From: a virus | Reading direction: 5' to 3' (one strand) | Virus record (IMG/VR): IMGVR_UViG_3300045988_169405 | Length of the DNA: 64,000 nt | Part shown: positions 520 to 45,160 of the stretch, one piece after another | Layout: the number at the start of each line of letters is the position of its first letter | Numbering within the stretch: position 1 is the first letter of the stretch | Notes under the pieces: generated by a model | Told to the model about the DNA's origin: nothing | The model's database searches: none | Seen by the model: the letters and a program-made list of their open reading frames with translations, nothing else | Position numbers and translations under genes: made by a program

Positions 520-2121
520 CTAGCTCTTGTTTTCCCACGGGAAACCAGCATCAATACCACGCTCAAGAAGCGGGATAAGCTCGAACCCCTTATCAGTCAG
601 ACCACCAAGCGACCAGCGGCGCTCCTTAGCCTCCATATGAGCCGCCTCATACCCGGCAAGGTTCCAGGTGAAGACATTCACATGCGCCGGTACATAGCGG
701 TCAAGAACCTCATCGACAGTGTACTCATCACCCCAGTACCTACGGGCATTAAGGCTCTGCTCATCACTGATAATGAGGATACGGTCATGACCATTATAAG
801 ACTCACGCAGAGCCTTAGCGGTAGCGGTACCACCACGAGCCTCCGGCATGTCATTCTCAACAACACGCAACAGGTCATTAGAGGTAATCTTAACCTTCTC
901 AACCTGAGTATCGAACGCCACAACATCAACGCGACCCTTATTCTTCAGAGCAAAGGCGGCGGCGAACATGTTAGCGGCATCCTGACGCGACAGAGAGCTA
1001 CGCTCAGAAAGGCGGCTACCCATAGAGCCGGAACGGTCAAGAAGAAGCAGGGTGCGACCCGGCAACTCCGGCACATTATCCAGCACACTATTAGCACCCG
1101 CCTGTAGTGCGGCGGCAAAATCAAGCGGCGCGTTCTTGTAAGCGGCAAGGAAGTTAATCGGCATAGTCTTCGCACGCACAATAGCTTCCTCATCACGCAA
1201 CTTACGGTTAATCTTCTCGATAGTATCGTAAGACACACCCGCGTTGCTGATACGGCTCAGGTTCATACGAAGCGCCTGGTAACCCATATGGTCAATGAGG
1301 TTATCCCAAACCTCAGCCGGGATAACACCAATAGTACCCGCAATTACCTCATGGGTAAGACGCGCATCCTTGATGATACGGTCAGCGGATTCCTTATCGG
1401 AAAGAACCTTAATCTTCTCATCCTTGGTGAGGTTCAAGAAGTCACGGCGTGCCTTCATGACGGACAGCTCTTCAAGGTTCGGCTCACGACCGTAAGCAGA
1501 ATCAATGATAGCGCCGTACAGGTTCTCACGGTACTTATCAGACGGCTTCGGGTGAACAAGGTTCACCACATCAGCAAGAGTGAAAGCACCCTTAGCCATA
1601 CGACCCTGCCACTTCAAAACACTGTTCTCAGTAACAGACCTATTCAGGGCATCAGCAATACCACGCTTCACAGCAGACGGCACCTTACGACCAAAACGAG
1701 AGAACCAATAAGCCAGGAACTCACTAGACTCATCCAGACGACCAATAGCGGCAGAAACAAGGGCACGGTTACCACCACTCAAACCAGCCTCCAGGCGCGC
1801 ATGAACAGCTTCAGCGGCAATCATTGCCGGTACAGCACGAAGACCCGCCTCCTGGCGAAGCCAACCAATCAGACCCTCAAGCCAAACATTATCGTCTGCA
1901 ACCTGCTTCACAAGACCAGCGATACGGTCAGCACGCGCGTCAGCCTTCTCATAGAACGTATCCTCATTCAGCGAAGTAACGGCGGCTAGGAACAGCTCAG
2001 CCTTCGGGGTACGCTTCCAGCCGGTACCACCCTCAAAGGTGCTGATACGCTCGCCGGTAGTGTCAATCTTATTAGTCGCCTTGTTAGCGGTCACATGGTT
2101 CTTAGTGTTGAATCGTCCCAT
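520..2121 (-). CDS. rsr: Ro60/Rsr-like protein: N-terminal TROVE-like domain + C-terminal von Willebrand A domain (MIDAS motif D-R-S-G-S: LLLDRSGSMGS)
   Basis: 533 aa; the vWA DxSxS motif is read directly; TROVE+vWA architecture and size match Ro60; candidate Y-RNA repeats lie adjacent. Confidence 0.6.
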   Translation of the reverse strand: MGRFNTKNHVTANKATNKIDTTGERISTFEGGTGWKRTPKAELFLAAVTSLNEDTFYEKADARADRIAGLVKQVADDNVWLEGLIGWLRQEAGLRAVPAMIAAEAVHARLEAGLSGGNRALVSAAIGRLDESSEFLAYWFSRFGRKVPSAVKRGIADALNRSVTENSVLKWQGRMAKGAFTLADVVNLVHPKPSDKYRENLYGAIIDSAYGREPNLEELSVMKARRDFLNLTKDEKIKVLSDKESADRIIKDARLTHEVIAGTIGVIPAEVWDNLIDHMGYQALRMNLSRISNAGVSYDTIEKINRKLRDEEAIVRAKTMPINFLAAYKNAPLDFAAALQAGANSVLDNVPELPGRTLLLLDRSGSMGSRLSERSSLSRQDAANMFAAAFALKNKGRVDVVAFDTQVEKVKITSNDLLRVVENDMPEARGGTATAKALRESYNGHDRILIISDEQSLNARRYWGDEYTVDEVLDRYVPAHVNVFTWNLAGYEAAHMEAKERRWSLGGLTDKGFELIPLLERGIDAGFPWENKS

Positions 2122-5235: not shown

Positions 5236-6216
5236 CTACTGGTCGCTTTTCTTGATGTACTTTTGAGCTTCACTCTTGGGTACATGGAACGCAATTTTTG
5301 CGCGTCCAGCATCCCAAGCGTTCACGGCACAGCCCGTGTCACGACCTTCTACGCAGAGCGGCTGTCCATCAAAAACAGTCAGCCGAGTGCGATACAAGGG
5401 GGTGTACTCGACATACGCCTTACCAGGCTCCTGGTCTTCAATAATAAAGTACTTATCAGGCGTGTAGGTGACTTCCTGCTTAGCCGGTGATTCACCTTCC
5501 TGCACCCAAGCATATAGGGGCTTCGTAGGTTTATTGGCACTCTTGGCACTATCAAGTAGAGTATCGCTAGGGGTGCCGCCCGTGTTCTGGATTTCGTGTG
5601 CTATCTGCTGTTGCCCATTATTACTATCCAGCTCTCGTAGTGGGTACTTGATGGTCACGGTCTGGTGCGTACCATTTTCAACCTTCGTATCAGGCATTAG
5701 CTCCAACGCCTTAACATTAGGGCTTACAACGGCAAGGGTTACCAGGGCAATGCTGACAATAATCTTTAGGATTGAACTAACCATAATCTTGCCGTATTCC
5801 TTGTAGCCATATTCCCATAGGGCGTGCGGGTTTTTATGAACCCACCAATCATGGGTGAGGCGGTCGCACCCGAACAATATTTCAAAACCTTCAAAACCTG
5901 GGTCTTCCGGCACGCCTTCGGGAATGTCCTTATTGAAAAAGAACGCCGGTATGATTGCGGCAATAATTAGCCCACCAATAACGTAAGGGACAACCTGGGC
6001 ATCTAGCTTTAGAGTCACCGCAACAGCAATAAGCATGAAGATGAAACTGAAACTTTTCAGCTCTGAAGGCACAGGGTCAAAGGACGGCAGAGGCCCCTTG
6101 AAATTTCGTTCTTTGAACTCTTTAATTCCTTTGGTGAGCCGCCATGCAACTATCGCCTTATAAACTTGAAACGGAATGAAGGCAATGAGCATTAGCAACA
6201 GGAGCGTTAGGAACAT
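5236..6216 (-). CDS. membrane protein (several N-terminal TM helices + C-terminal soluble domain)
   Basis: hydrophobic segments in the translation. Confidence 0.55.
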   Translation of the reverse strand: MFLTLLLLMLIAFIPFQVYKAIVAWRLTKGIKEFKERNFKGPLPSFDPVPSELKSFSFIFMLIAVAVTLKLDAQVVPYVIGGLIIAAIIPAFFFNKDIPEGVPEDPGFEGFEILFGCDRLTHDWWVHKNPHALWEYGYKEYGKIMVSSILKIIVSIALVTLAVVSPNVKALELMPDTKVENGTHQTVTIKYPLRELDSNNGQQQIAHEIQNTGGTPSDTLLDSAKSANKPTKPLYAWVQEGESPAKQEVTYTPDKYFIIEDQEPGKAYVEYTPLYRTRLTVFDGQPLCVEGRDTGCAVNAWDAGRAKIAFHVPKSEAQKYIKKSDQ

Positions 6217-6329
6217 GATAACTATTCTTTCTGTAGGTAATGTTCACTGTCCACTATACCCGATTCGCGTAGAGTAAAGCCATGCCCCTAACCTGTTCTC
6301 CAAGTTAGGGGCATAGGGTTCTTGTTTAC

Positions 6330-8030
6330 CGGTGGGAAGGGTGCATGACTGTTGCTGAGTTTATTGATATTGCGCCCATGATTTAATATTGATAATATTA
6401 GATACATTAGCCGCAACCCAAAGACACTAGAGAGGAGGGTGCGTTGGCAAAGAACAAAACCTATAGGGCGTTTGTCGCGCGCCCAACCCATGTTCTCGAC
6501 TTGAACGGTGAGCTACTGGAAGCCGCGCCTATCATGGCTCAGCTCACTACTGAGGTTCGCGGCATTTCGTCTTACGCAACTTACGTTACCCGTAACGACA
6601 CTCAGCTTGAGGCGGGTCTGGCAACGGCTGGCACTGCCCAGCCTGCGGTTGTGGGTCGCCGCGCGGGTATCACTATGCCCGAGTTTCTTGTAACCGGCAA
6701 GTCTGGTAGGTCGCGTAAAGAATGGCTGGTTAGGTATAACGTCGTCACAGCTTTCCGTTCCTGGCAGGAACGCATCAAAGCCGTAAACGGTGAAAGTGAT
6801 AAGTATGTTTCGCAGGGCTGGAAACGCACCGTGAATGACTCGGCCCCCACGTATGGCGAGGGCACTATCAATCTCGGTGCTGTAGACCGTTGCTACGCCG
6901 TAATTGAGAACAATCCGTTTGTTGATGGTGAGATTACCCTCAAGATGGTTATCCGTGGCGCATGGTATCGCCTATTTTTCCCCTTCGATAATACCCGCTT
7001 CACTGAGGGTAAGGTCACTTTGCCACTCATCAAGGTTCAGGACGGCGCGCCCGTTTTCATTTTCTCCGTGGTGACGGATAACCCGATTGTCCAGTTCTCT
7101 GGTGACTATGTTATCGGCGTGGATGTTGGTATCAATGATTATGCTACCGTCGTGGTTCGCAATACTGTAACGGGTGAAATCACTCACCAGACGACACTCT
7201 CTCAGCGTGTCCATTCGCTCTGGAATAGTGTTCGTGCGTCTGAGCGGCAGGTGCGTCAGCTTAGAGAGAAAGCCGCCCGGTTGTTGAATGACCGCCCATA
7301 TGAGCGTCAAGCAATTATGGCGGCACTAGACGAGGCACAACTCCACCGCAAGGCGGCCTCTAGGAAGAAACGTGAACTCGCTATCCTTGCCGCCCAGGAA
7401 ATTGCTTATTTGTCGCATTTCTTTGGTAATGCTGTTGTTGCTGTTGAAGACCTCAGCTGGATTACGAATACCATGCAGAACGGCAGGTGGAACAGGGGCG
7501 CGTTCACCCAATGGCTCACCCATTACGTCAGTCAGAATGGTGGGTGGGTCGTATCTGTGAGCTCTTTTAATACGTCGCAGGTATGCCATGTGTGCGGTGT
7601 GGAAGTCACACACCCTGAACACAGGGTATCTATATGCTCTAAGCACGGCATGATGGATAGGGACGTGAACGCCGCCGCAAACATTGCGGCGCGCGCTGTA
7701 CCGAAGGTTGAGAAGGCGCGTAAGAAGCGTTCCAGGAACAGTAAGCTCCAACCGCAGGCTCCTCTGAAAACCCCGGTAGCTAGGGGCTCTTTGAAGTACC
7801 CTGGTCGTGATAGGACGAAGAACGCGCCTACACCAAAAAGGAAGAACCACTCCCAAGTTTCTAGGGAGGTGACTCTTCCTTCTAGCCCCGCTAGGGCACA
7901 AGCAAAATGCTTGGAAGCCAGCGTACTAGCGGACTGCCTCGCATACGGTGTTGCAGGGACTTCTCAAGCGGCTATCAAACAGGGAACCATAACCAAATAT
8001 AGGTTATGTAGCCCTATTTGATACAGTATT
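6330..8030 (+). mobile_element. putative IS605-family (tnpB-only) insertion; ends not precisely defined
   Basis: opposite strand to every other gene; AT-rich left flank; right end abuts the stop of 8014-9099. Confidence 0.55.
6444..8021 (+). CDS. tnpB: IS605/IS1341-family TnpB (OrfB) RuvC-like nuclease; TTG start. The long C-terminal tail is probably read-through over the omega-RNA/right-end region
   Basis: RuvC-I IGVDVGINDYATVVV, RuvC-II AVEDLSW, Zn ribbon CHVCG...CSKHG, RuvC-III DRDVNAAANIA; only plus-strand gene; AT-rich 5' flank. Confidence 0.8.
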   Translation: MAKNKTYRAFVARPTHVLDLNGELLEAAPIMAQLTTEVRGISSYATYVTRNDTQLEAGLATAGTAQPAVVGRRAGITMPEFLVTGKSGRSRKEWLVRYNVVTAFRSWQERIKAVNGESDKYVSQGWKRTVNDSAPTYGEGTINLGAVDRCYAVIENNPFVDGEITLKMVIRGAWYRLFFPFDNTRFTEGKVTLPLIKVQDGAPVFIFSVVTDNPIVQFSGDYVIGVDVGINDYATVVVRNTVTGEITHQTTLSQRVHSLWNSVRASERQVRQLREKAARLLNDRPYERQAIMAALDEAQLHRKAASRKKRELAILAAQEIAYLSHFFGNAVVAVEDLSWITNTMQNGRWNRGAFTQWLTHYVSQNGGWVVSVSSFNTSQVCHVCGVEVTHPEHRVSICSKHGMMDRDVNAAANIAARAVPKVEKARKKRSRNSKLQPQAPLKTPVARGSLKYPGRDRTKNAPTPKRKNHSQVSREVTLPSSPARAQAKCLEASVLADCLAYGVAGTSQAAIKQGTITKYRLCSPI

Positions 8031-9099
8031 GCCACAGGCTGTCAGGCTGGTTAGCCGCCAACAGCTTACCCCATGCCTTGTTTACTTCCTTGAGGTTTAC
8101 CTCTTCGGTGTTGCCGGGGGTGTGCATCTTAATGTACTTGTCGTACAGTTCGGGTGCGTCGATTCGTGCCAGTTCCCAGCCGATGCACTTGCAGGTGTTG
8201 TCGTGCTGTTCAGGGTTTCGGCAGTATCGGGTAATGCCGTCGGTGAAGGTGTGCAGTTCGTCTACACGGTTATAGATGCCCTGCATGTTCCATGCCATGC
8301 GTACCGTGCCGTAGGGGTCGGCGGCGGTGTATCCGTCCTCATCGAGTGGGTACAGGCTTTCACTGAACACGAGGGGGCTACCTTCGGTGGTTACAGCCGA
8401 GTCAGCACCAAACAGTTCGTTCTCACCATATGAGGGGTCGGACTCGATGGCGATATTACCCCCCAGGATGTAGCGCCACAGGCTTACCTTTCCGGTAATG
8501 TTTGCGGTGCCCTTGATTGTTACGCGGTCTACTTCATAGAGTCCACGCAGGTCGCTAGGGGCTTCACTGATAATGGTGACCTTGTAGAAGTACTTGACGG
8601 GGCTCGGGAGGGTCATGGTGCCGTCCAGGTATACATGCTCGAAACGCCCCTCCGGGGTGATTCCGTCACCACGGAAGAAGCACCAACCGTAGAAGGTAGT
8701 CTTGTGGGTGGTTGCCATGTTGAATCGGGTACCACCCATGAGGAATACACGGGTTTCCGGCACAGAGTCACGCTTCACATAACCGCCTACAAACTGGGTG
8801 AGGGTACGGATGGGAATAGTCACGGTCTTATCTTCATGGTTCCAGGTAACACCCTGCAAGTTATCGAAGTCTTCAAGGAAGAACAAGGGGTTGAGCTGAC
8901 GGCGCACCGTGATAGTAATCAGCTCCTTACCCGCCTGCTGAAGCTTACGAAGCTCAGGGTACAGGATAGGGTAGGGGTTAATATCATCATCGGTGGTACC
9001 GTAGCGGTAGGCATTTGCCAACTGTCCGGTGGGCGCAATATCCGCCGGGGTTAGGGGTCGCACCTCATACGGTACGGTAACGGTCTTATGTGCAGGCAT
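8014..9099 (-). CDS. hypothetical protein (361 aa)
   Basis: ORF. Confidence 0.6.
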   Translation of the reverse strand: MPAHKTVTVPYEVRPLTPADIAPTGQLANAYRYGTTDDDINPYPILYPELRKLQQAGKELITITVRRQLNPLFFLEDFDNLQGVTWNHEDKTVTIPIRTLTQFVGGYVKRDSVPETRVFLMGGTRFNMATTHKTTFYGWCFFRGDGITPEGRFEHVYLDGTMTLPSPVKYFYKVTIISEAPSDLRGLYEVDRVTIKGTANITGKVSLWRYILGGNIAIESDPSYGENELFGADSAVTTEGSPLVFSESLYPLDEDGYTAADPYGTVRMAWNMQGIYNRVDELHTFTDGITRYCRNPEQHDNTCKCIGWELARIDAPELYDKYIKMHTPGNTEEVNLKEVNKAWGKLLAANQPDSLWQYCIK

Positions 9100-9393: not shown

Positions 9394-9462
9394 GGGGGTA
9401 TTCCTTTTCTGTGGTGAGTAGGTATTTCCTTGTGGCGGTATCCATAACCACCATTCATATAA

Positions 9463-9518
9463 CCATTATGACACACTCTAAACCCCTATGCAAGTTAGAA
9501 TTACGTGAAATAGGTAAC
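9463..9518 (-). promoter_or_regulatory. conserved promoter module
   Basis: copy 3. Confidence 0.55.
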
Positions 9519-9540
9519 ATAAAGAATTTAGTAAAGTAAA

Positions 9541-9590: not shown

Positions 9591-10364
9591 CTACTTCTTG
9601 TTGTTTGCCTTCAGCTTTGCAAGCTCATCATCCAGGGCGGAATCAACAGCCAGAGAGTCCAGCTCATCGAAGCCGTCCTTTACCGGGTCAGCCATAATCT
9701 CCTGACGACCCTGAAGACGTGCCTCCTCACGGGCGATACGCTCTTCCCACTCATTCATAGGCGAGCTCAGGTTAGTACCATTGACGTTGATACTCTCAGT
9801 AGCGTCAAGGATACGACCCATAGCCTCATTCGTCTTATGACGTGCCAGAAGCTCATCACGCTGGTGGTGAGCCGCCGCCAGCTTCTCACGTGCATCATTC
9901 AGCTGACCCTTCAGAGAATCAACACGCGGGGTAGCAACCTTAATCTGCTCCTCAAGCTTCTCAGCAGTCTTCTCAGCGTTAGTACGGTTCTTCAGGGCGA
10001 TACGTGCCAGACCGTCAAACTTATCAGCCTGAGCCTCAGCCTTGGTACGTGCCGGGTCACCAACCTCAAGCTTCTCAGCCTGAGCACGGAACTCATCAGC
10101 CTTATCAGAAGCCGCCTGAGCCTTAACCTGCCACTCCTGAACCTTGCCCTGTTCCTTCTTATGGTCAGACTCCATGATGCGCAGGTTGCCGATAACCTCA
10201 GCAACATTACCCTCCGCTACACGAATCTCTTCCTTGTAGTCACGGATAAGCTGGTTCAGCATCTCCTGCGGGTCTTCCGCCTTATCAATTGCGGTGTTAA
10301 TCTTTGCGCGAATGAGGTTGTTGAAACGTGCAAAAATGCTGTTCTTGTTCTGGTTCTTACCCAT
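9591..10364 (-). CDS. pspA: PspA/IM30 (phage shock protein A / Vipp1 / LiaH) family coiled-coil protein
   Basis: the N-terminus MGKNQNKNSIFARFNNLIRAKINTAIDKAEDPQEMLNQLIRDYKEEI matches the PspA N-terminal helix (MGIFSRF..INALLEKAEDPQK); ~255 aa coiled coil; start chosen at the ATG preceded by GAAAGG. Confidence 0.75.
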   Translation of the reverse strand: MGKNQNKNSIFARFNNLIRAKINTAIDKAEDPQEMLNQLIRDYKEEIRVAEGNVAEVIGNLRIMESDHKKEQGKVQEWQVKAQAASDKADEFRAQAEKLEVGDPARTKAEAQADKFDGLARIALKNRTNAEKTAEKLEEQIKVATPRVDSLKGQLNDAREKLAAAHHQRDELLARHKTNEAMGRILDATESINVNGTNLSSPMNEWEERIAREEARLQGRQEIMADPVKDGFDELDSLAVDSALDDELAKLKANNKK

Positions 10365-10625
10365 TGTGGGTTTACCTAACCTTTCGTTGGTTAATGTTGT
10401 GGAACATGATTCACGGTCGCCCATCCTGTAGGGCTTCCTGTCTTTCGTGTGACCTTTTAGGGGTCATACTCAGAATATCAGGTTCCGGGGTTAAAATCTA
10501 GTGTATTACTGTATCGTCACCGACTGTTCACCTGTTGGAGCCAACCCTGCATACAAGGGGAAGGTGCTTCTTGTCTAGGGTAAATACCTAGCCAAGTTGC
10601 GAAATACATTCACTATAAGTCTTCC

Positions 10626-10756
10626 TTATGCGGGGCGGGTCGGGTATCACTACCCGGCGGTGACCATCAAGCTAACCAAGCGGCTAACTGTATAGGCCTT
10701 GACAGTACCCGTAAAGGGCAATGTCCGTTTAACCTCTCCCGTCTCTCACAGGCGAG
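10626..10756. repeat. copy A of a ~130-bp duplicated structured element (hairpin CGGGTA-tcac-TACCCG, then GGTGACCATCAAGCT...CAATGTCCGTTTAACCTCTCCCGTCTCTCACAGGCGAGG)
   Basis: aligned by eye to copy B. Confidence 0.6.
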
Positions 10757-10823
10757 GTGTTGTACCGATTATATCATATTTTCTGTCCGGTAGCACCTAT
10801 TGGCGCTCTTACCTTGTTCAGGT

Positions 10824-12462: not shown

Positions 12463-12554
12463 TTGGTATACTTCCTCTCTAGAAGTAGTAGTAGATATAA
12501 GGTCTAGCCATGTTTAGCTAGTACCTTTGAGGTTTCCCTCTTGCTTATGTAACC

Positions 12555-12612
12555 ATTATGGCACACTCTAAACCCCTATGCAAGCCGAAATCAAGTGAAA
12601 TAGCTCACATAG
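12555..12612 (-). promoter_or_regulatory. conserved promoter module (TTGCAT-N17-CATAAT; AGTGAAATAGCTCACA)
   Basis: copy 4. Confidence 0.6.
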
Positions 12613-12690
12613 GGGTTTATAGGGGTAAAGTGCCTTATAAATAGGGCTTCTTCTTACTCTACTTCTTCAAGAAAGCACCAAAGAACACGC

Positions 12691-13761
12691 CTATGAGATA
12701 GGTGTCAGTAGAGTATCTACAGCACGGACAATATTGCGCCCATAGTAACTATGCCGCATGTCTTCACTAATAGGAACATTGCCATGCGCTACCGTGGGCT
12801 CAATCTTTTCACCCAAATAGACAGGTGGGGCAATTCGGATAGCACACACCGTAGAAGTAGGTGCACCCGTGACATACGGTTGCTTGTTCTTACCGGCGGA
12901 AAGTGCATACACTTCATTATTAGGGGTAGTGACATAAGCGAAAGATGCTTCACTGAAACTCAAACAAAGCTTGTCCAACAAATAGGTGGATACTGCCGCA
13001 CTGCAATCTGCGTAACCATGAGGATAGCCCATATCATTATCAGTATCCGACCCAGCAGATGCAATAATAGATTCAAGAATGGTTCGATAATTCAAGTCAT
13101 GTGAGACAATCACCTTATACCCAACCATTGCCCCATACTGATTAACAAGCGCATAAGCACCACAATCACTATAGGGCGGCATCTTAGCCACGAGCCTGCC
13201 GGTTTCCACCTCTGAATCCGCGTTAGTCATAAAGTACCCCTTCGGGTCTTCGCCTTCACCATGAGGAAGTACAGCCATAGCCACATCACGCACAGTTTCC
13301 GAAAGAGCATGACCTACAGTAGTTTCACTAAGATGCCGACCACCTGAGCGTGCATAACTATACCCATGCTCACCACTCCTTAGATGCTTCGGCAAGTCAC
13401 TCAATCGGGTAGTGGTATTGAAAATACTGTATTCCTCAGCGGTATAAACGGCAACAGACTTGGCGGTTACGATACTGTAATACTTACCTTGCGGGTCTGC
13501 AACTGCTGTAACAGTGAGAGTGAATACATTGCCTTCATTGTCGATAATGTACCGCTTAGAAGTATTAGTTGGTGCTTCACTACCCGCCGGGTCATCAACG
13601 CTAACCCAGGTAAGAGGTTGCGGTGGCTTATACCCGGCGGGCGGTTCAGCCGTGATAGTCGCGATAGTTGTAGTCATCTCAGAGGTCAAGAGATTATCCA
13701 ACAGAAGCTTGAGTACTTCCTCAATAGTGACCTTGTTTTCAATATGTACAGATGCGTACAT
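12691..13761 (-). CDS. hypothetical protein (356 aa)
   Basis: ORF. Confidence 0.6.
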   Translation of the reverse strand: MYASVHIENKVTIEEVLKLLLDNLLTSEMTTTIATITAEPPAGYKPPQPLTWVSVDDPAGSEAPTNTSKRYIIDNEGNVFTLTVTAVADPQGKYYSIVTAKSVAVYTAEEYSIFNTTTRLSDLPKHLRSGEHGYSYARSGGRHLSETTVGHALSETVRDVAMAVLPHGEGEDPKGYFMTNADSEVETGRLVAKMPPYSDCGAYALVNQYGAMVGYKVIVSHDLNYRTILESIIASAGSDTDNDMGYPHGYADCSAAVSTYLLDKLCLSFSEASFAYVTTPNNEVYALSAGKNKQPYVTGAPTSTVCAIRIAPPVYLGEKIEPTVAHGNVPISEDMRHSYYGRNIVRAVDTLLTPIS

Positions 13762-13859: not shown

Positions 13860-14990
13860 TTACTTACGGTGCTTACCGCGAGTCAGGAAAGCATTAGAAA
13901 CAATCTTGAAGTGGGCACGGTTAGCAATTTCACGGCGGGGCTTACCGTCCTTGAAGTACCAGACGATGCCTTCGGCGGTCTGACCGGGCGCTACCTGAGA
14001 CTCTACAGAGTCAGCCTGCTCAAGGGCGGCAAAGCCGTTACCTACCCATTCAATGTCGAGTACGGGTACCCAGAGGTTCGCGTCCTTGAATAGTGCTTCG
14101 ACAGTATCGTTAGATGCGTGGAAGGCGCGGAAATCGGGCTGGTCGCCGGTAGCAAACTTGAAGGTACCCCTAATCTTGTTGCAGAAAAGTTCACCCTGTA
14201 CCCATTCACCCGGCTTGAGCTGGTCAAAAACATGGGCGTAGCGGCGGTAACCGTCAAGGTACTGCTTCCAATTCTTGCTATCCATTGCGTCTACCTTAAT
14301 GGAGCGGTCACGGTTAGCGATACGAATTTCACCGGTATCAGCATCACGCCAAACAGTCATAGAGGTGCCGTCAATCTTCTCAGTAGCATACACGTCATCT
14401 GCGGTGATGCTATCCAGGAAGTCGGTAGGGATATTCTGGACGCGCTCAGCGTCAGTCTTGGTGATGAAGTTAGGGAACGCTTCTAGACCGTAGTCACCAC
14501 CGGCAAGAATCTTCTCCTCGACATGCTTAGTGATGATGCCGTCGAAGTAGGTGTCCACCTCTTCTTGAGTAGCATCTTCACTCAAGCCTTCAAACTCAGA
14601 GACGGGCAAGATAAGACCCTGCGACAGGGTTTCACGCAGGTACATGGTGCGCAGTACTACGCCTTCAATATAGTGTCCATTGACAACGCGGGTCGCCTTC
14701 TTGCCACGGATAGGCTCAAACGCCGGGTGCTTGGTGTTGAGGATTGAGTCAATCTCAAAGTAAACACCCTTATCGCCTTCGGTCATGGTCTTGGGCGCTA
14801 CAACCCACCACAGGGTGCCTTCGGGTCGGACGGCGTGAATCTTATCTGCCGGGTTGTTACATTCCTTTACTTCTTCAATGGTGGTAATGTGTGCGAGGTG
14901 TCGGATACCGTCTACGGCGGTAGAAGTCATGATGTTTATGTTCCTTATCTTTCGGATATGCTGGGTTCCCCGTATGGTGAATAATACCAT
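13860..14990 (-). CDS. ATP-dependent RNA ligase-like covalent nucleotidyltransferase (Rnl family; N-terminal domain + NTase)
   Basis: motif I TEKIDGTS (KxDG), motif IV AEGIVWYFKDGK (EGhVhK), motif V HFKIVS; likely start at MTSTAVDG (14930). Confidence 0.5.
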   Translation of the reverse strand: MVLFTIRGTQHIRKIRNINIMTSTAVDGIRHLAHITTIEEVKECNNPADKIHAVRPEGTLWWVVAPKTMTEGDKGVYFEIDSILNTKHPAFEPIRGKKATRVVNGHYIEGVVLRTMYLRETLSQGLILPVSEFEGLSEDATQEEVDTYFDGIITKHVEEKILAGGDYGLEAFPNFITKTDAERVQNIPTDFLDSITADDVYATEKIDGTSMTVWRDADTGEIRIANRDRSIKVDAMDSKNWKQYLDGYRRYAHVFDQLKPGEWVQGELFCNKIRGTFKFATGDQPDFRAFHASNDTVEALFKDANLWVPVLDIEWVGNGFAALEQADSVESQVAPGQTAEGIVWYFKDGKPRREIANRAHFKIVSNAFLTRGKHRK

Positions 14991-31150: not shown

Positions 31151-32728
31151 CTAGAACTCACCATCATCTTCTGGGTCACCTAGATTCAGAGGCTCTAGAA
31201 CAGGCTCAGCTTCCTTCTTAGTATCCTTAGCGGCGTTATTGATTCCGCTACCGATAGCTCGACCGGTTACAGTTGCCTGAATCAGGTCACGAACATCAAG
31301 TCCTAGACCGGCGGTAACCTTATCCATGCTGGTCATGATGTCGCCAACCATCTGCCCGGTGTTACCTTCACCGTACATGGTAATGCTATCAACGTTATTC
31401 AGCGGCTCAGATACGGCGCGTGCAACTTCAGGTAGGACATTGACAAGCATCTCGATAACAGCGGCATCCTTCATCTTGAGCATTGCTTCCGCCTTCTTGT
31501 CTAGACCGTCTGCTTCTGCTTCAAGCTTGAGGCGTACTGCTTCTGCTTCTGCTTCACCGCGTAGGCGGATTGCGTCTGCTTCTGCTTCTGCCGTCATCTT
31601 GAGAGCTTCCGCTTCCTGCTGGCGGCGGTATGCTTCCGCTTCAGCGGTCATCTTCAGCACTTCTGCTTCCTGCTGGCGGCGGTACGCCTCAGCTTCAGAC
31701 TTCTTCATGCTCTCAAACAGTTCAGCCTGTGCGCGCTGTTCACGTGCTCGACGTTCAGTGTTCGCGGTTTCTTCAACCTCAGCAACTAGGGTCTGCTTGC
31801 GGACTTCAACTTCCTTAGCCTTGACCAGCGCTTCCTTTTCCTGTCGGACAATGTTAGCGTTAGCGCGGGCGGCTTCGGTTCGGCTTCGCTGGTTCTCGAA
31901 CTCAGTCTCGAACGCGGCTTCAGCGATTGCTCGTTCCTTCTCAGCTTCAGCTTTGAGCTGGCTCTTAGAAATTTCGAGTTCGTTCTGCCTCTTAGCGATT
32001 TCCTTATCAGCGGCGACACGTGCGTCGTTTGCGAGCTTTTCAGAGCTTGCCTGCTGTTCCTCAATCTTCTGGGTTGCGATAGCCTTAGCGGTTGCCGCTT
32101 CCTGTCGAATCTTTTCGGTATTGTCAGCACCAAGGTTGTCGATAACACCCTTATCGTCACGGACGGTCTGGATGTTGAACGCTACGATTTCTAGACCCAT
32201 TTCCTCTAGGTCGTTCGTCGCGTTTTCCTGAACCTTGTTAGCGAGCTGTTGCCTATCTTGGACGATAGCCTTCAGTTCCATTTCACCAATGATGGAGCGT
32301 AGGTGACCTTCAAGGGTTTCACGTACCGAGTCAGCGATTTCAATATCAGTCCTACCGAGGAAGTTACGGGCGGCAACCTCGAACAGTTCCTTACGGTCTA
32401 GACCGATACGTACCTTCACTTCAGCTTCAGCCTGCACGTTGATAAAGTCGTTAGTAGGGGTGCTACCGTTCGTCTTCACATCAATAGATACCATGCTTGC
32501 GGTCATGGAGTCTACACGCTCAATGAACGGGACACGCCAACCAGTCTTACCCTGTAGTACACGGATACCACGGCGACCTGAGATGACCTTCACCTCACCG
32601 GGGCTTGCCGATACGATACCTGCCATGAAGATTGCCACACCGATACCAATGATGATGAGTGCGGCTACGGCGATAATTAGTAGGTTCGCGATTTGCATTA
32701 TGTAGTTATTCTTTCTGTCATGGGACAA
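31151..32728 (-). CDS. flotillin / SPFH (band-7) domain protein: N-terminal TM, SPFH domain and a long E/A-rich coiled coil
   Basis: TM MQIANLLIIAVAALIIIGIGVAIF, then GEVKVISGRRG...; EA repeats resemble FloT/YqiK; likely start at MQIANLL (32698). Confidence 0.65.
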   Translation of the reverse strand: MSHDRKNNYIMQIANLLIIAVAALIIIGIGVAIFMAGIVSASPGEVKVISGRRGIRVLQGKTGWRVPFIERVDSMTASMVSIDVKTNGSTPTNDFINVQAEAEVKVRIGLDRKELFEVAARNFLGRTDIEIADSVRETLEGHLRSIIGEMELKAIVQDRQQLANKVQENATNDLEEMGLEIVAFNIQTVRDDKGVIDNLGADNTEKIRQEAATAKAIATQKIEEQQASSEKLANDARVAADKEIAKRQNELEISKSQLKAEAEKERAIAEAAFETEFENQRSRTEAARANANIVRQEKEALVKAKEVEVRKQTLVAEVEETANTERRAREQRAQAELFESMKKSEAEAYRRQQEAEVLKMTAEAEAYRRQQEAEALKMTAEAEADAIRLRGEAEAEAVRLKLEAEADGLDKKAEAMLKMKDAAVIEMLVNVLPEVARAVSEPLNNVDSITMYGEGNTGQMVGDIMTSMDKVTAGLGLDVRDLIQATVTGRAIGSGINNAAKDTKKEAEPVLEPLNLGDPEDDGEF

Positions 32729-45026: not shown

Positions 45027-45097
45027 GATGAGCAACCTTTCGGTAGGTAGATAGTGAACTTATCGCTAGGGGCTTTCCCCCTTGCTTATATAACTAT

Positions 45098-45160
45098 TAT
45101 GGCACAATCATAACCCCTGCGCAAGTTAAAAATCTGTGAATTAGCCCACATAGGGGTTGT
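45098..45160 (-). promoter_or_regulatory. conserved promoter module (TGTGAATTAGCCCACA)
   Basis: copy. Confidence 0.6.

Follow-up and report, generated by a model that had tools for sequence, protein, structure and literature searches.

Introduction

Insertion sequences of the IS607 family are mobilised by a serine transposase, have no terminal inverted repeats and make no true target duplication; a crossover core lies at both boundaries of the element, and the G-rich target ends in this core (10.1101/2023.11.20.567912; PMC13565253). The left and right cores may differ in functional IS607 integration products (10.1101/2023.11.20.567912). RAGATH-18 is the omega-RNA family reported for the TnpB nucleases of these elements, and giant viruses of eukaryotes are known to harbour IS607-like elements (PMC13565253). 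Phages, too, are reported to encode TnpB frequently (PMC12607003). Here we describe a tnpB-bearing element in a 64,000-nucleotide stretch of viral DNA (IMG/VR record IMGVR_UViG_3300045988_169405; the whole stretch is called the window below). A preliminary description had presented it as an IS605-family TnpB recently inserted antisense into a phage. We assign the element to the IS607 family, as a non-autonomous member without its own transposase gene but with an intact tnpB and a guide-RNA scaffold. Our literature searches, which were limited, found no description of this TnpB lineage, and a preprint on oral jumbo phages does not mention transposases.

A discrete element interrupts the 3' end of a phage gene

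A metagenome scan yielded 410 relatives, with up to four copies from one contig, and 80 of these loci were fetched (fetched loci bear L numbers below). DNA likeness among the copies is restricted to window positions ~6343-8024. This interval, 6343-8024, is a discrete element of 1682 nt composed of a 101-nt left end, tnpB and a structured right end of ~160 nt. The left end (6343-6443, plus strand) was placed by the point at which similarity starts among copies in unrelated contexts. It is AT-rich, begins GCAT-GACTGTTGC, carries two direct TTGATA motifs (plus strand, at 6364 and 6389) and is homologous to the left end of L075, a copy with its own transposase gene. The GC content is 0.43 at 6151-6450 and about 0.50-0.56 around it; the AT-rich 5' flank noted in the preliminary description is thus real and corresponds to the element's left end. 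A left boundary at 6347 (GACTG) was considered and displaced to 6343 by further copies and empty sites. On the right, the element ends in the terminus TTGATAC (8018-8024, plus strand), which is unchanged in 75 copies and holds the tnpB stop codon, TGA, at 8019-8021. An nhmmer profile of the left end has its sole match in the window at 6343/6345-6446 (1e-28), and a nucleotide profile of the right end matches only at 7860-8024 (3e-50). The triplet GGT (6340-6342, plus strand) precedes the element, where empty sites have a single triplet, and AGT (8025-8027, plus strand), placed by filled/empty pairs and triplet matching, follows it. The segment 7159-7169 is perfectly complementary to the right-end/flank junction at 8022-8032; a match of 11 nt is about the chance expectation.

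The interrupted gene (8014-9099, minus strand) encodes a protein of unknown function of 361 amino acids. The open reading frame (ORF) of tnpB ends at 8021 and overlaps its 3' end by 8 bp, as described before. In the window the protein ends ...LWQYCIK-stop and its homologues end ...LWQYPP(R/H)R-stop, in some cases with an additional S (...LWQYPP(R/H)(S)R-stop), the divergence falling exactly at the element. The tail C-I-K-stop replaces the original P-P-H/R-R-stop: the Cys codon (8023-8025) straddles the boundary between element and core, and I, K and the stop lie inside the element. The displaced original 3' end, codons P-S-H-R-stop, is found on the other side of the insert (6326-6340, minus strand), with a terminator-like hairpin after it (6280-6316). 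Excision of 6343-8027 in silico produces an ORF of 362 amino acids ending ...LWQYPSHR-stop, which is as long as the intact homologues and departs from their ending by one substitution. An original C-terminus in the frame reading ...APFPPVNK... was ruled out by the homologues, which give P-S-H-R-stop.

Syntenic relatives hold the corresponding empty site. A 288.5-kb contig (L007) and four more (together L007-L011) carry a PspA gene, the homologue of the interrupted gene and a gene of 325 amino acids, the last two with no insert between them. A flank-joining search of all copies over all fetched DNA returned 18 further filled/empty comparisons. Among them are five empty sites inside the window itself, at ~15016, ~25480, ~29070, ~32720 and ~61205, which are filled in relatives L021, L025, L024, L029/L041 and L017, respectively. 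At ~29070 the window has GAGG in place of the GGT-A of the filled relative, and the core/TAM region (TAM, transposon-associated motif) has thus diverged there. Because syntenic relatives hold the empty site and excision restores the neighbouring ORF, we conclude that the element is a true insertion at 6343-8024. The insertion claimed in the preliminary description therefore stands. The two points on which its author would have given it up were loss of the RuvC catalytic residues and a syntenic tnpB in all relatives; the residues are kept (see below) and the gene is missing from syntenic contigs. Since IS607 excision is scarless, an empty site may represent the ancestral state or the outcome of an excision.

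Serine recombinases and crossover cores place the element in the IS607 family

Transposase genes were found beside tnpB in a few relatives. In L075, a gene of 206 amino acids ends at the ribosome-binding site of tnpB; its product has HTH_17 and Resolvase domains and passes the NCBIfam equivalog NF033518, 'IS607 family transposase' (111.6 bits, cut-off 110). This copy has GGT on both flanks. The same serine recombinase gene is present in L084, and a more distant relative on a 209-kb contig (L093, 44% TnpB identity) has an HTH_17 and Resolvase gene directly upstream of tnpB.

Flank statistics were compiled from 65 non-redundant copies, with a shuffle test of 2000 trials. Upstream of the element, position -9 is A in 34 of the 65 copies and almost never C, position -8 is G in 60, and the triplet next to the left end follows B-S-T, with T in 58; farther out the sequence is random. 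In the window this target region, which is also the predicted TAM, reads AAG followed by GGT (6337-6342, plus strand). Downstream, the TTGATAC end is always present and is followed by a second B-S-T triplet, beyond which the flank is random. Of the 65 copies, 31 have the same triplet, in register, on the left and on the right (shuffled mean 8.4, maximum 18), and the two match even when the third base is not T, as in L026, which has TCA on both sides. Empty sites have one triplet and filled sites have one on each side, as seen in the single-core filled/empty pairs L026/L006, L039/L028, L044/L004, L079/L078 and L021/window. Inspection by eye found no covariation of the core with the opening 4 nt of the left end. 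A search for inverted pairs (seed 7) detected 23, none of which links both termini of the element.

Together, the serine recombinase of the autonomous copies, the lack of terminal inverted repeats and the core triplet on both sides lead us to assign the family to IS607 and not to IS605. As the window contains no tnpA, the copy studied here is classed on sequence grounds as a non-autonomous, tnpA-less member.

The preliminary description had named IS605, and an IS200/IS605 element would be moved as single-stranded DNA by a Y1/HUH TnpA, would insert 3' of a fixed tetra- or pentanucleotide and would have subterminal hairpins. Source and library annotations do call the relatives 'IS605 OrfB', the NCBIfam model IS200_TnpB matches the window TnpB weakly (39.7 bits), and there are hairpins in the right end. 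That score is, however, far under the cut-off of 425, the right-end hairpins covary as RNA, and the left flank is G-rich and variable, with no fixed AT-rich tetra- or pentamer and with a core triplet on both sides. The only transposase genes beside family members, those of L075, L084 and L093 (the last at 44% identity), encode serine recombinases. We therefore abandoned the IS605 assignment and regard it as extremely improbable. Two other classes were ruled out: a DDE-type transposase with a 3-bp target duplication, by the lack of terminal inverted repeats and the serine recombinases beside family members, and an IStron, by the absence of intron families from Rfam scans and a left end of just 101 nt.

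The element encodes a TnpB with an intact RuvC triad

The tnpB ORF (6444-8021, plus strand) encodes 525 amino acids from a TTG start preceded by the ribosome-binding site GAGGAGGG. Its product matches PF07282 Cas12f1-like_TNB (8.8e-14; 51.8 bits, cut-off 26.3) and PHROG 506 'transposase' (1e-22), and the NCBIfam model guided_TnpB aligns to residues 103-417. The catalytic residues are D227 in RuvC-I (IGVDVG), E335 in RuvC-II (AVEDL) and D407 in RuvC-III (DRDVNAAANIA), and the zinc ribbon has the form CxxC...CxxH/C. In alignments of 26-28 homologues, D227, E335 and D407 are invariant, with members as low as 22-44% identity, and so are C381, C384 and C398, including homologues at 38-44% identity. 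The RuvC-III motif can be aligned with those of Cas12m, Fanzor2 and Cas12f. The RuvC-II glutamate sits 46 residues ahead of the zinc ribbon, a placement that by sequence is the canonical prokaryotic one and not that of Fanzors. The TTG start, the RuvC-I/II/III and zinc-ribbon motifs and the long open tail after RuvC-III, here ~118 codons beyond D407, had all been recognised in the preliminary description and are confirmed. Its statement that tnpB is the only plus-strand gene is essentially true as well: in a non-exhaustive check of ORFs of at least 120 amino acids, the others on this strand overlap a longer minus-strand ORF or match no family.

An AlphaFold2 model of the protein has a per-residue confidence (predicted local distance difference test) of 80-93 over residues 1-440, and residues 440-525 are predicted to be disordered. 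Foldseek aligned the model over ~440-465 columns with Cas12f (8j3r, 1.5e-12), ISDra2 TnpB (8h1j, 1.4e-11) and ISFba1 TnpB (8iaz, 6e-9), each at probability 1.00, and with mimivirus Fanzor2 (9b0l, 2e-8). When sequences alone were compared with the solved structures, the match was confined to the RuvC/zinc-ribbon part. The model thus has, over its whole length, the bilobed WED/REC and RuvC fold of the TnpB/Cas12f type. The ratio of third- to first/second-codon-position entropy is 3.07 for residues 1-420 and 2.98 for residues 421-470, and because of this ratio of ~3 we consider residues 1-470 to be under purifying selection. By analogy we infer that the window TnpB cleaves DNA in an RNA-guided, TAM-dependent manner.

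An ORF of the same length and start codon (31151-32728, minus strand; 525 amino acids, TTG) was examined as a second tnpB copy and ruled out, being an unrelated flotillin/SPFH protein.

The right end folds as an omega-RNA scaffold within the tnpB reading frame

The last 300 nt of 75 copies were aligned and analysed with RNAalifold, which gave a consensus of 40 pairs, 18 of them showing double compensatory changes. Mapped on the window, the structured RNA occupies 7864-8024 (plus strand) and its helices span 7864-8021: 7864-7868/7876-7880, 7884-7887/7970-7973, 7888-7897/7917-7932, 7899-7903/7909-7913, 7934-7941/7949-7956, 7960-7961/7967-7968, 7975-7979/8017-8021 and 7988-7993/8003-8008. We then counted pairs on 45 pairs (one hairpin added by hand), using as controls partners slid by 1-3 columns and 500 column shuffles. 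Standard pairs occupy 95.7% of the cells (31-44% when slid), double changes occur in 259 cells (15-51 when slid) and the covariation score is 0.294 (0.057-0.081 when slid); none of the 500 shuffles reached any of these values. The helix in which TCAAA (7975-7979) pairs with TTTGA of the invariant terminus also covaries (A-U 37 : U-A 18). Folding the window copy as a single sequence gives the same helices, with a minimum free energy of -66.1 kcal/mol and z = -2.5. Rfam scans of 6000-8500 (E <= 10) and of the whole window (gathering threshold) found no known family for this RNA. From its covariation, its fold and the lost codon periodicity, we identify the right end as the omega-RNA scaffold.

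Over this RNA the codon-position entropy ratio falls to 1.06 (residues 471-500) and 1.11 (residues 501-525), yet the frame is kept open. The stop codon of tnpB is the TGA inside TTGATAC in 78 of 87 ORFs, the last 53 codons are free of stops in 71 of 76 copies, and insertions and deletions over the RNA-coding tail are almost all multiples of three. The other two frames over the same 53 codons contain 225 and 333 stops and are never open. Since the stretch covaries without codon periodicity and its frame nevertheless remains open, it is constrained as RNA and separately for read-through. The overlap of the omega-RNA with the 3' end of the ORF was therefore correctly anticipated in the preliminary description, but it covers ~55 codons (from residue ~474 on) and not all ~100 codons of the tail, as residues 421-470 evolve as protein.

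Further right-end/omega-RNA matches lie near the main copies in L088 (81-247, minus strand) and L002 (20830-20985). In L050 a second right end (2485-2632) precedes the left end of the main copy by ~270 nt and may represent either a solo end or a neighbouring copy that was truncated.

By analogy with IS605/IS607 TnpB systems (10.1101/2023.11.20.567912; PMC13565253), the guide is predicted to be the flank immediately 3' of the element, in the window ATTGCCACAGGCTGTCAGGC (8028-8047, plus strand). Compared with the empty alleles of relatives, this sequence has 2-3 mismatches in 20, and predicted guides overall have 0-3 mismatches in 20.

The lineage occurs in multiple copies in oral jumbo phages

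The window, which comes from a ~290-kb phage, encodes a TnpB with thousands of homologues that share 70-90% identity with it and lie on 250-313-kb contigs, with several different ones on the same contig. In six relatives tnpB lies in six unrelated neighbourhoods, insertion sites differ between related phages, and some of the samples with relatives are labelled human oral metagenome. These observations place the element lineage in ~250-310-kb phages of the human oral cavity, where it appears as a multi-copy, site-polymorphic element. No close DNA match was found among GenBank phages, in which tblastn detected only the OrfB of Thermus phage T72 (27%), and an IMG/VR search with the neighbour protein found nothing. 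Relatives were also sought in 185,579 species genomes of bacteria and archaea by two scans, pattern-limited and not sensitive, which found none; the close clade may be phage-resident, and the lineage seems restricted to abundant jumbo phages of the human mouth.

A different type of TnpB, matching PF01385 OrfB_IS605 and PF07282, is encoded by L010 and L011 (1-1020) and by L093 (16327-17497). As this type is present in the same phages, these genomes hold more than one TnpB lineage.

The copies also bear on the age of the insertion. L092 (563-2327), from another oral sample, has the identical right junction and flank, whereas its left flank is unrelated. The L092 TnpB (P0002) shares ~80% identity with the window TnpB over residues 1-200 and is near-identical thereafter. 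Similarly, L018 and L021 have a common right flank and different left flanks. The shared right junctions with unrelated left flanks and the mosaic P0002 indicate that recombination between dispersed copies of the element rearranges phage genomes. Apart from L092, the other copies retrieved are ~69-82% identical in DNA. The term 'recent insertion' used in the preliminary description is thus borne out as to insertion but not as to recency, given the junction shared with L092, the unequal cores GGT and AGT, this divergence and the scarless excision of IS607.

The same evidence raises the question of whether the window copy is a decaying relic, that is, a true IS607-type insertion that no longer moves or cuts. 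The unequal flanking cores, the lack of tnpA in the window, the ~69-82% DNA identity, which leaves no room for a recent burst, and the age implied by the common junction would all fit such a relic. Yet its ORF is full length with all catalytic residues kept, its left and right ends score strongly against the family profiles (1e-28 and 3e-50), every consensus RNA helix forms in it, and unequal cores have been reported for functional integration products, as noted above. We consider a relic unlikely.

A proposed cycle of mobilisation in trans and guided cutting of the empty allele

The reading that we favour, and hold to be likely, is that of a non-autonomous IS607 member with intact tnpB and omega-RNA, moved in trans and directing guided cutting of the empty allele. 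A serine recombinase supplied in trans would excise the element as a circular double-stranded intermediate, and the circle would recombine at the short core in (A)G-core-T sites, leaving a core at both junctions and allowing scarless excision; we infer the circular intermediate and the scarless excision from the type of recombinase. TnpB would process its own transcript to an omega-RNA made of the 7864-8024 scaffold and ~16-20 nt of the right flank from 8028. The complex would then cut a TAM-like (A)G-N-N-T directly followed by the flank sequence. Such a target is the empty allele, be it one left by excision or one carried by a co-infecting relative, and repair by recombination with a filled copy would reinstate the element or let it spread (homing). 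Filled sites would be spared by the end of the element, which has C where the TAM has G (TTGATAC-NNT versus AG-NNT). The left flank, A-G-N-N-T, and the element end, A-C-N-N-T, indeed differ consistently only in this G versus C, a plausible self/non-self discriminator by analogy.

Several observations weigh against this proposal. No tnpA was found in the 64-kb window and only 2 of ~87 copies carry one, so that mobilisation in trans is assumed. The two cores of the window copy differ (GGT/AGT), and the GG core typical of IS607 (PMC13565253) is replaced in the family by a variable B-S(-T), whose first two positions (G/T/C, then G/C) are most commonly GG. RAGATH-18 was not found by Rfam searches of 6000-8500 at E <= 10 and of the whole window at the gathering threshold, and a simple sigma-70 scan of the left end found no promoter. 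The TnpB scores 64.3 bits against the curated guided_TnpB cut-off of 100 bits, and an exhaustive phmmer search over 1.84 billion representatives reached 374 proteins, 97 of them at E <= 1e-30; because of the missed cut-off and this reach, we consider the lineage divergent. Finally, the guide and the TAM are predictions by analogy.

A domesticated, immobile TnpB could instead serve the phage, as a TldR-like RNA-guided repressor or as a nuclease directed against the host or its defences. Such a role would agree with the lack of tnpA in nearly all copies, with purifying selection on tnpB and with a clade that looks phage-resident by the pattern-limited scans of 185,579 species genomes. It is very unlikely in our view, as close relatives differ in the sites that are occupied and have precise empty sites, the element has discrete, conserved ends, its RuvC triad, in contrast to that of TldR, is intact, and the sequence past the right end is random, each copy's 'guide' being its own flank as in selfish elements.

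Within the favoured reading of a mobile element with guided cutting, tnpA-less copies might persist and spread mainly as RNA-guided homing endonucleases among co-infecting jumbo phages, in a 'non-restorative' transposon homing. We put this forward tentatively, as a possibility with the balance against it. If true, each omega-RNA would target the empty allele of a rival phage, converting or excluding it, and the lineage would act as a natural gene drive among the phages of a human-associated population. Recombination among dispersed copies would also reshuffle the phage genomes, as in the L092 and L018/L021 chimeras.

Other features of the window

About 22 intergenic sites in window ~366-64000 carry a repeat of ~90 nt (for example 9438-9527, 12528-12617 and 45069-45158). 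On the minus strand, the strand of nearly all genes, it contains TTGCAT-N17-(TG)nCATAAT, which resembles a sigma-70 promoter; conserved sequence comes after this, and a GC-rich hairpin often stands before it. These are probably the phage's repeated promoter/terminator cassettes.

An element of ~140 nt is present in two copies, at ~10630-10757 and ~21870-21988, and includes a perfect 40-nt repeat. It has a compensatory stem (CGGGTA...TACCCG versus CTAACA...TGTTAG) and no Rfam match, one copy lies within a tRNA cluster, and it is probably an unannotated structured RNA. A gene at 520-2121 (minus strand) encodes a protein of 533 amino acids with TROVE and vWA domains (Ro60-like), an unusual phage cargo; given this Ro60 homologue encoded nearby, a Y-RNA-like partner role of the ~140-nt element is conceivable. 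Two further genes encode membrane-remodelling or stress proteins: a PspA/IM30 homologue (9591-10424, minus strand) and the flotillin/SPFH homologue mentioned above (31151-32728, minus strand; Band 7 and Flot).

Seventeen tRNA genes are clustered at 20537-23659 (minus strand). The one at 22913-22990 has an 8-nt anticodon loop with the anticodon 'taac' and is also called a tRNA by Rfam (38 bits); it may be a tRNA of the frameshift-suppressor kind or an artefact of ARAGORN. Two adjacent genes are RNA-ligase-like. That at 13860-14990 (minus strand) matches the PHA02142 OB-fold and RNA_ligase domains, and that at 12691-13761 (minus strand) is assigned solely from a syntenic gene of 356 amino acids in L007. 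With the tRNA cluster they suggest a tRNA-repair module.

Comparison with known systems

The occurrence of TnpB in phages and the biology of IS607 and TnpB are already known, and the basic finding is in itself unsurprising. The family is, however, unusually well resolved from sequence alone, with nucleotide-exact ends, dozens of filled/empty pairs, a clear target/TAM motif, identified autonomous partners and a guide-RNA structure backed by covariation and absent from Rfam. The lineage is also divergent in its long TnpB, its variable non-GG core and an ORF that stays open through the whole guide-RNA scaffold. It offers a ready system for studying RNA-guided nucleases as possible drivers of homing between co-infecting phages and the way in which a serine transposase handles variable crossover cores, and it is a candidate source of new TAM specificity for TnpB-based editors.

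The closest described elements are those of the IS607 family (Helicobacter pylori IS607, IS1535 and the Clostridium botulinum CboIStron/IS607 elements). They share with the window family a helix-turn-helix and resolvase TnpA followed by tnpB in autonomous copies, the lack of terminal inverted repeats, a G-rich left target, a core at both boundaries and one at the empty site, and a guide-RNA scaffold at the right end over the 3' end of tnpB; tnpA-less derivatives are common in both. Their core is GG, whereas that of the window family is a variable B-S(-T) (GGT, GCT, TCT, CGT, TGT and others) with the element end TTGATAC, and their TAMs are TGGG, AGGAG or GAGGG, where (A)G-N-N-T is predicted here. 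In addition, the window omega-RNA falls outside the RAGATH-18 model of Rfam, the TnpB is long (525 amino acids) and divergent, and the lineage is one of jumbo phages, the pattern-limited scans of bacterial species genomes having found no relative.

The TnpBs of ISDra2 and ISFba1 (IS200/IS605; 8exa, 8h1j, 8iaz) have the same fold (Foldseek E 1e-11 to 6e-9), the RuvC D-E-D with its glutamate ~46 residues before the zinc ribbon, and a guide RNA derived from the right end and flank, as is predicted for the window element. They differ in sequence (14-17% identity), and the window TnpB is ~115 residues longer, with a basic disordered tail. The window family is tied to a serine recombinase and not to Y1, and its target is G-rich and not AT-rich.

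Fanzor2 and the IS607-like elements of giant eukaryotic viruses (mimivirus L79, 9b0l) resemble the window element as TnpB-type nucleases of IS607 ancestry that proliferated in very large viral genomes. The fold of 9b0l matches at E 2e-8, and its RuvC-III/zinc-ribbon stretch aligns with the window TnpB. In Fanzors the RuvC-II glutamate has moved beside the zinc finger (PMC13565253), whereas the window TnpB has the canonical arrangement and its host is a bacteriophage. TldR, with an inactivated RuvC and a fixed position, contrasts with the intact triad and polymorphic sites found here.

The free-standing homing endonucleases Seg and Mob of T4-like phages are protein-only and lack transposase-defined ends, and they are compared here by analogy, no relationship being implied. 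If homing holds, the window family would be like them a set of multi-copy selfish nuclease genes between or at the ends of phage genes, present in some relatives and absent from others, and expected to cut the lacking allele at co-infection. Should tnpA-less copies persist and spread mainly by homing, as considered above, this IS607 lineage would be an RNA-guided counterpart to Seg and Mob.

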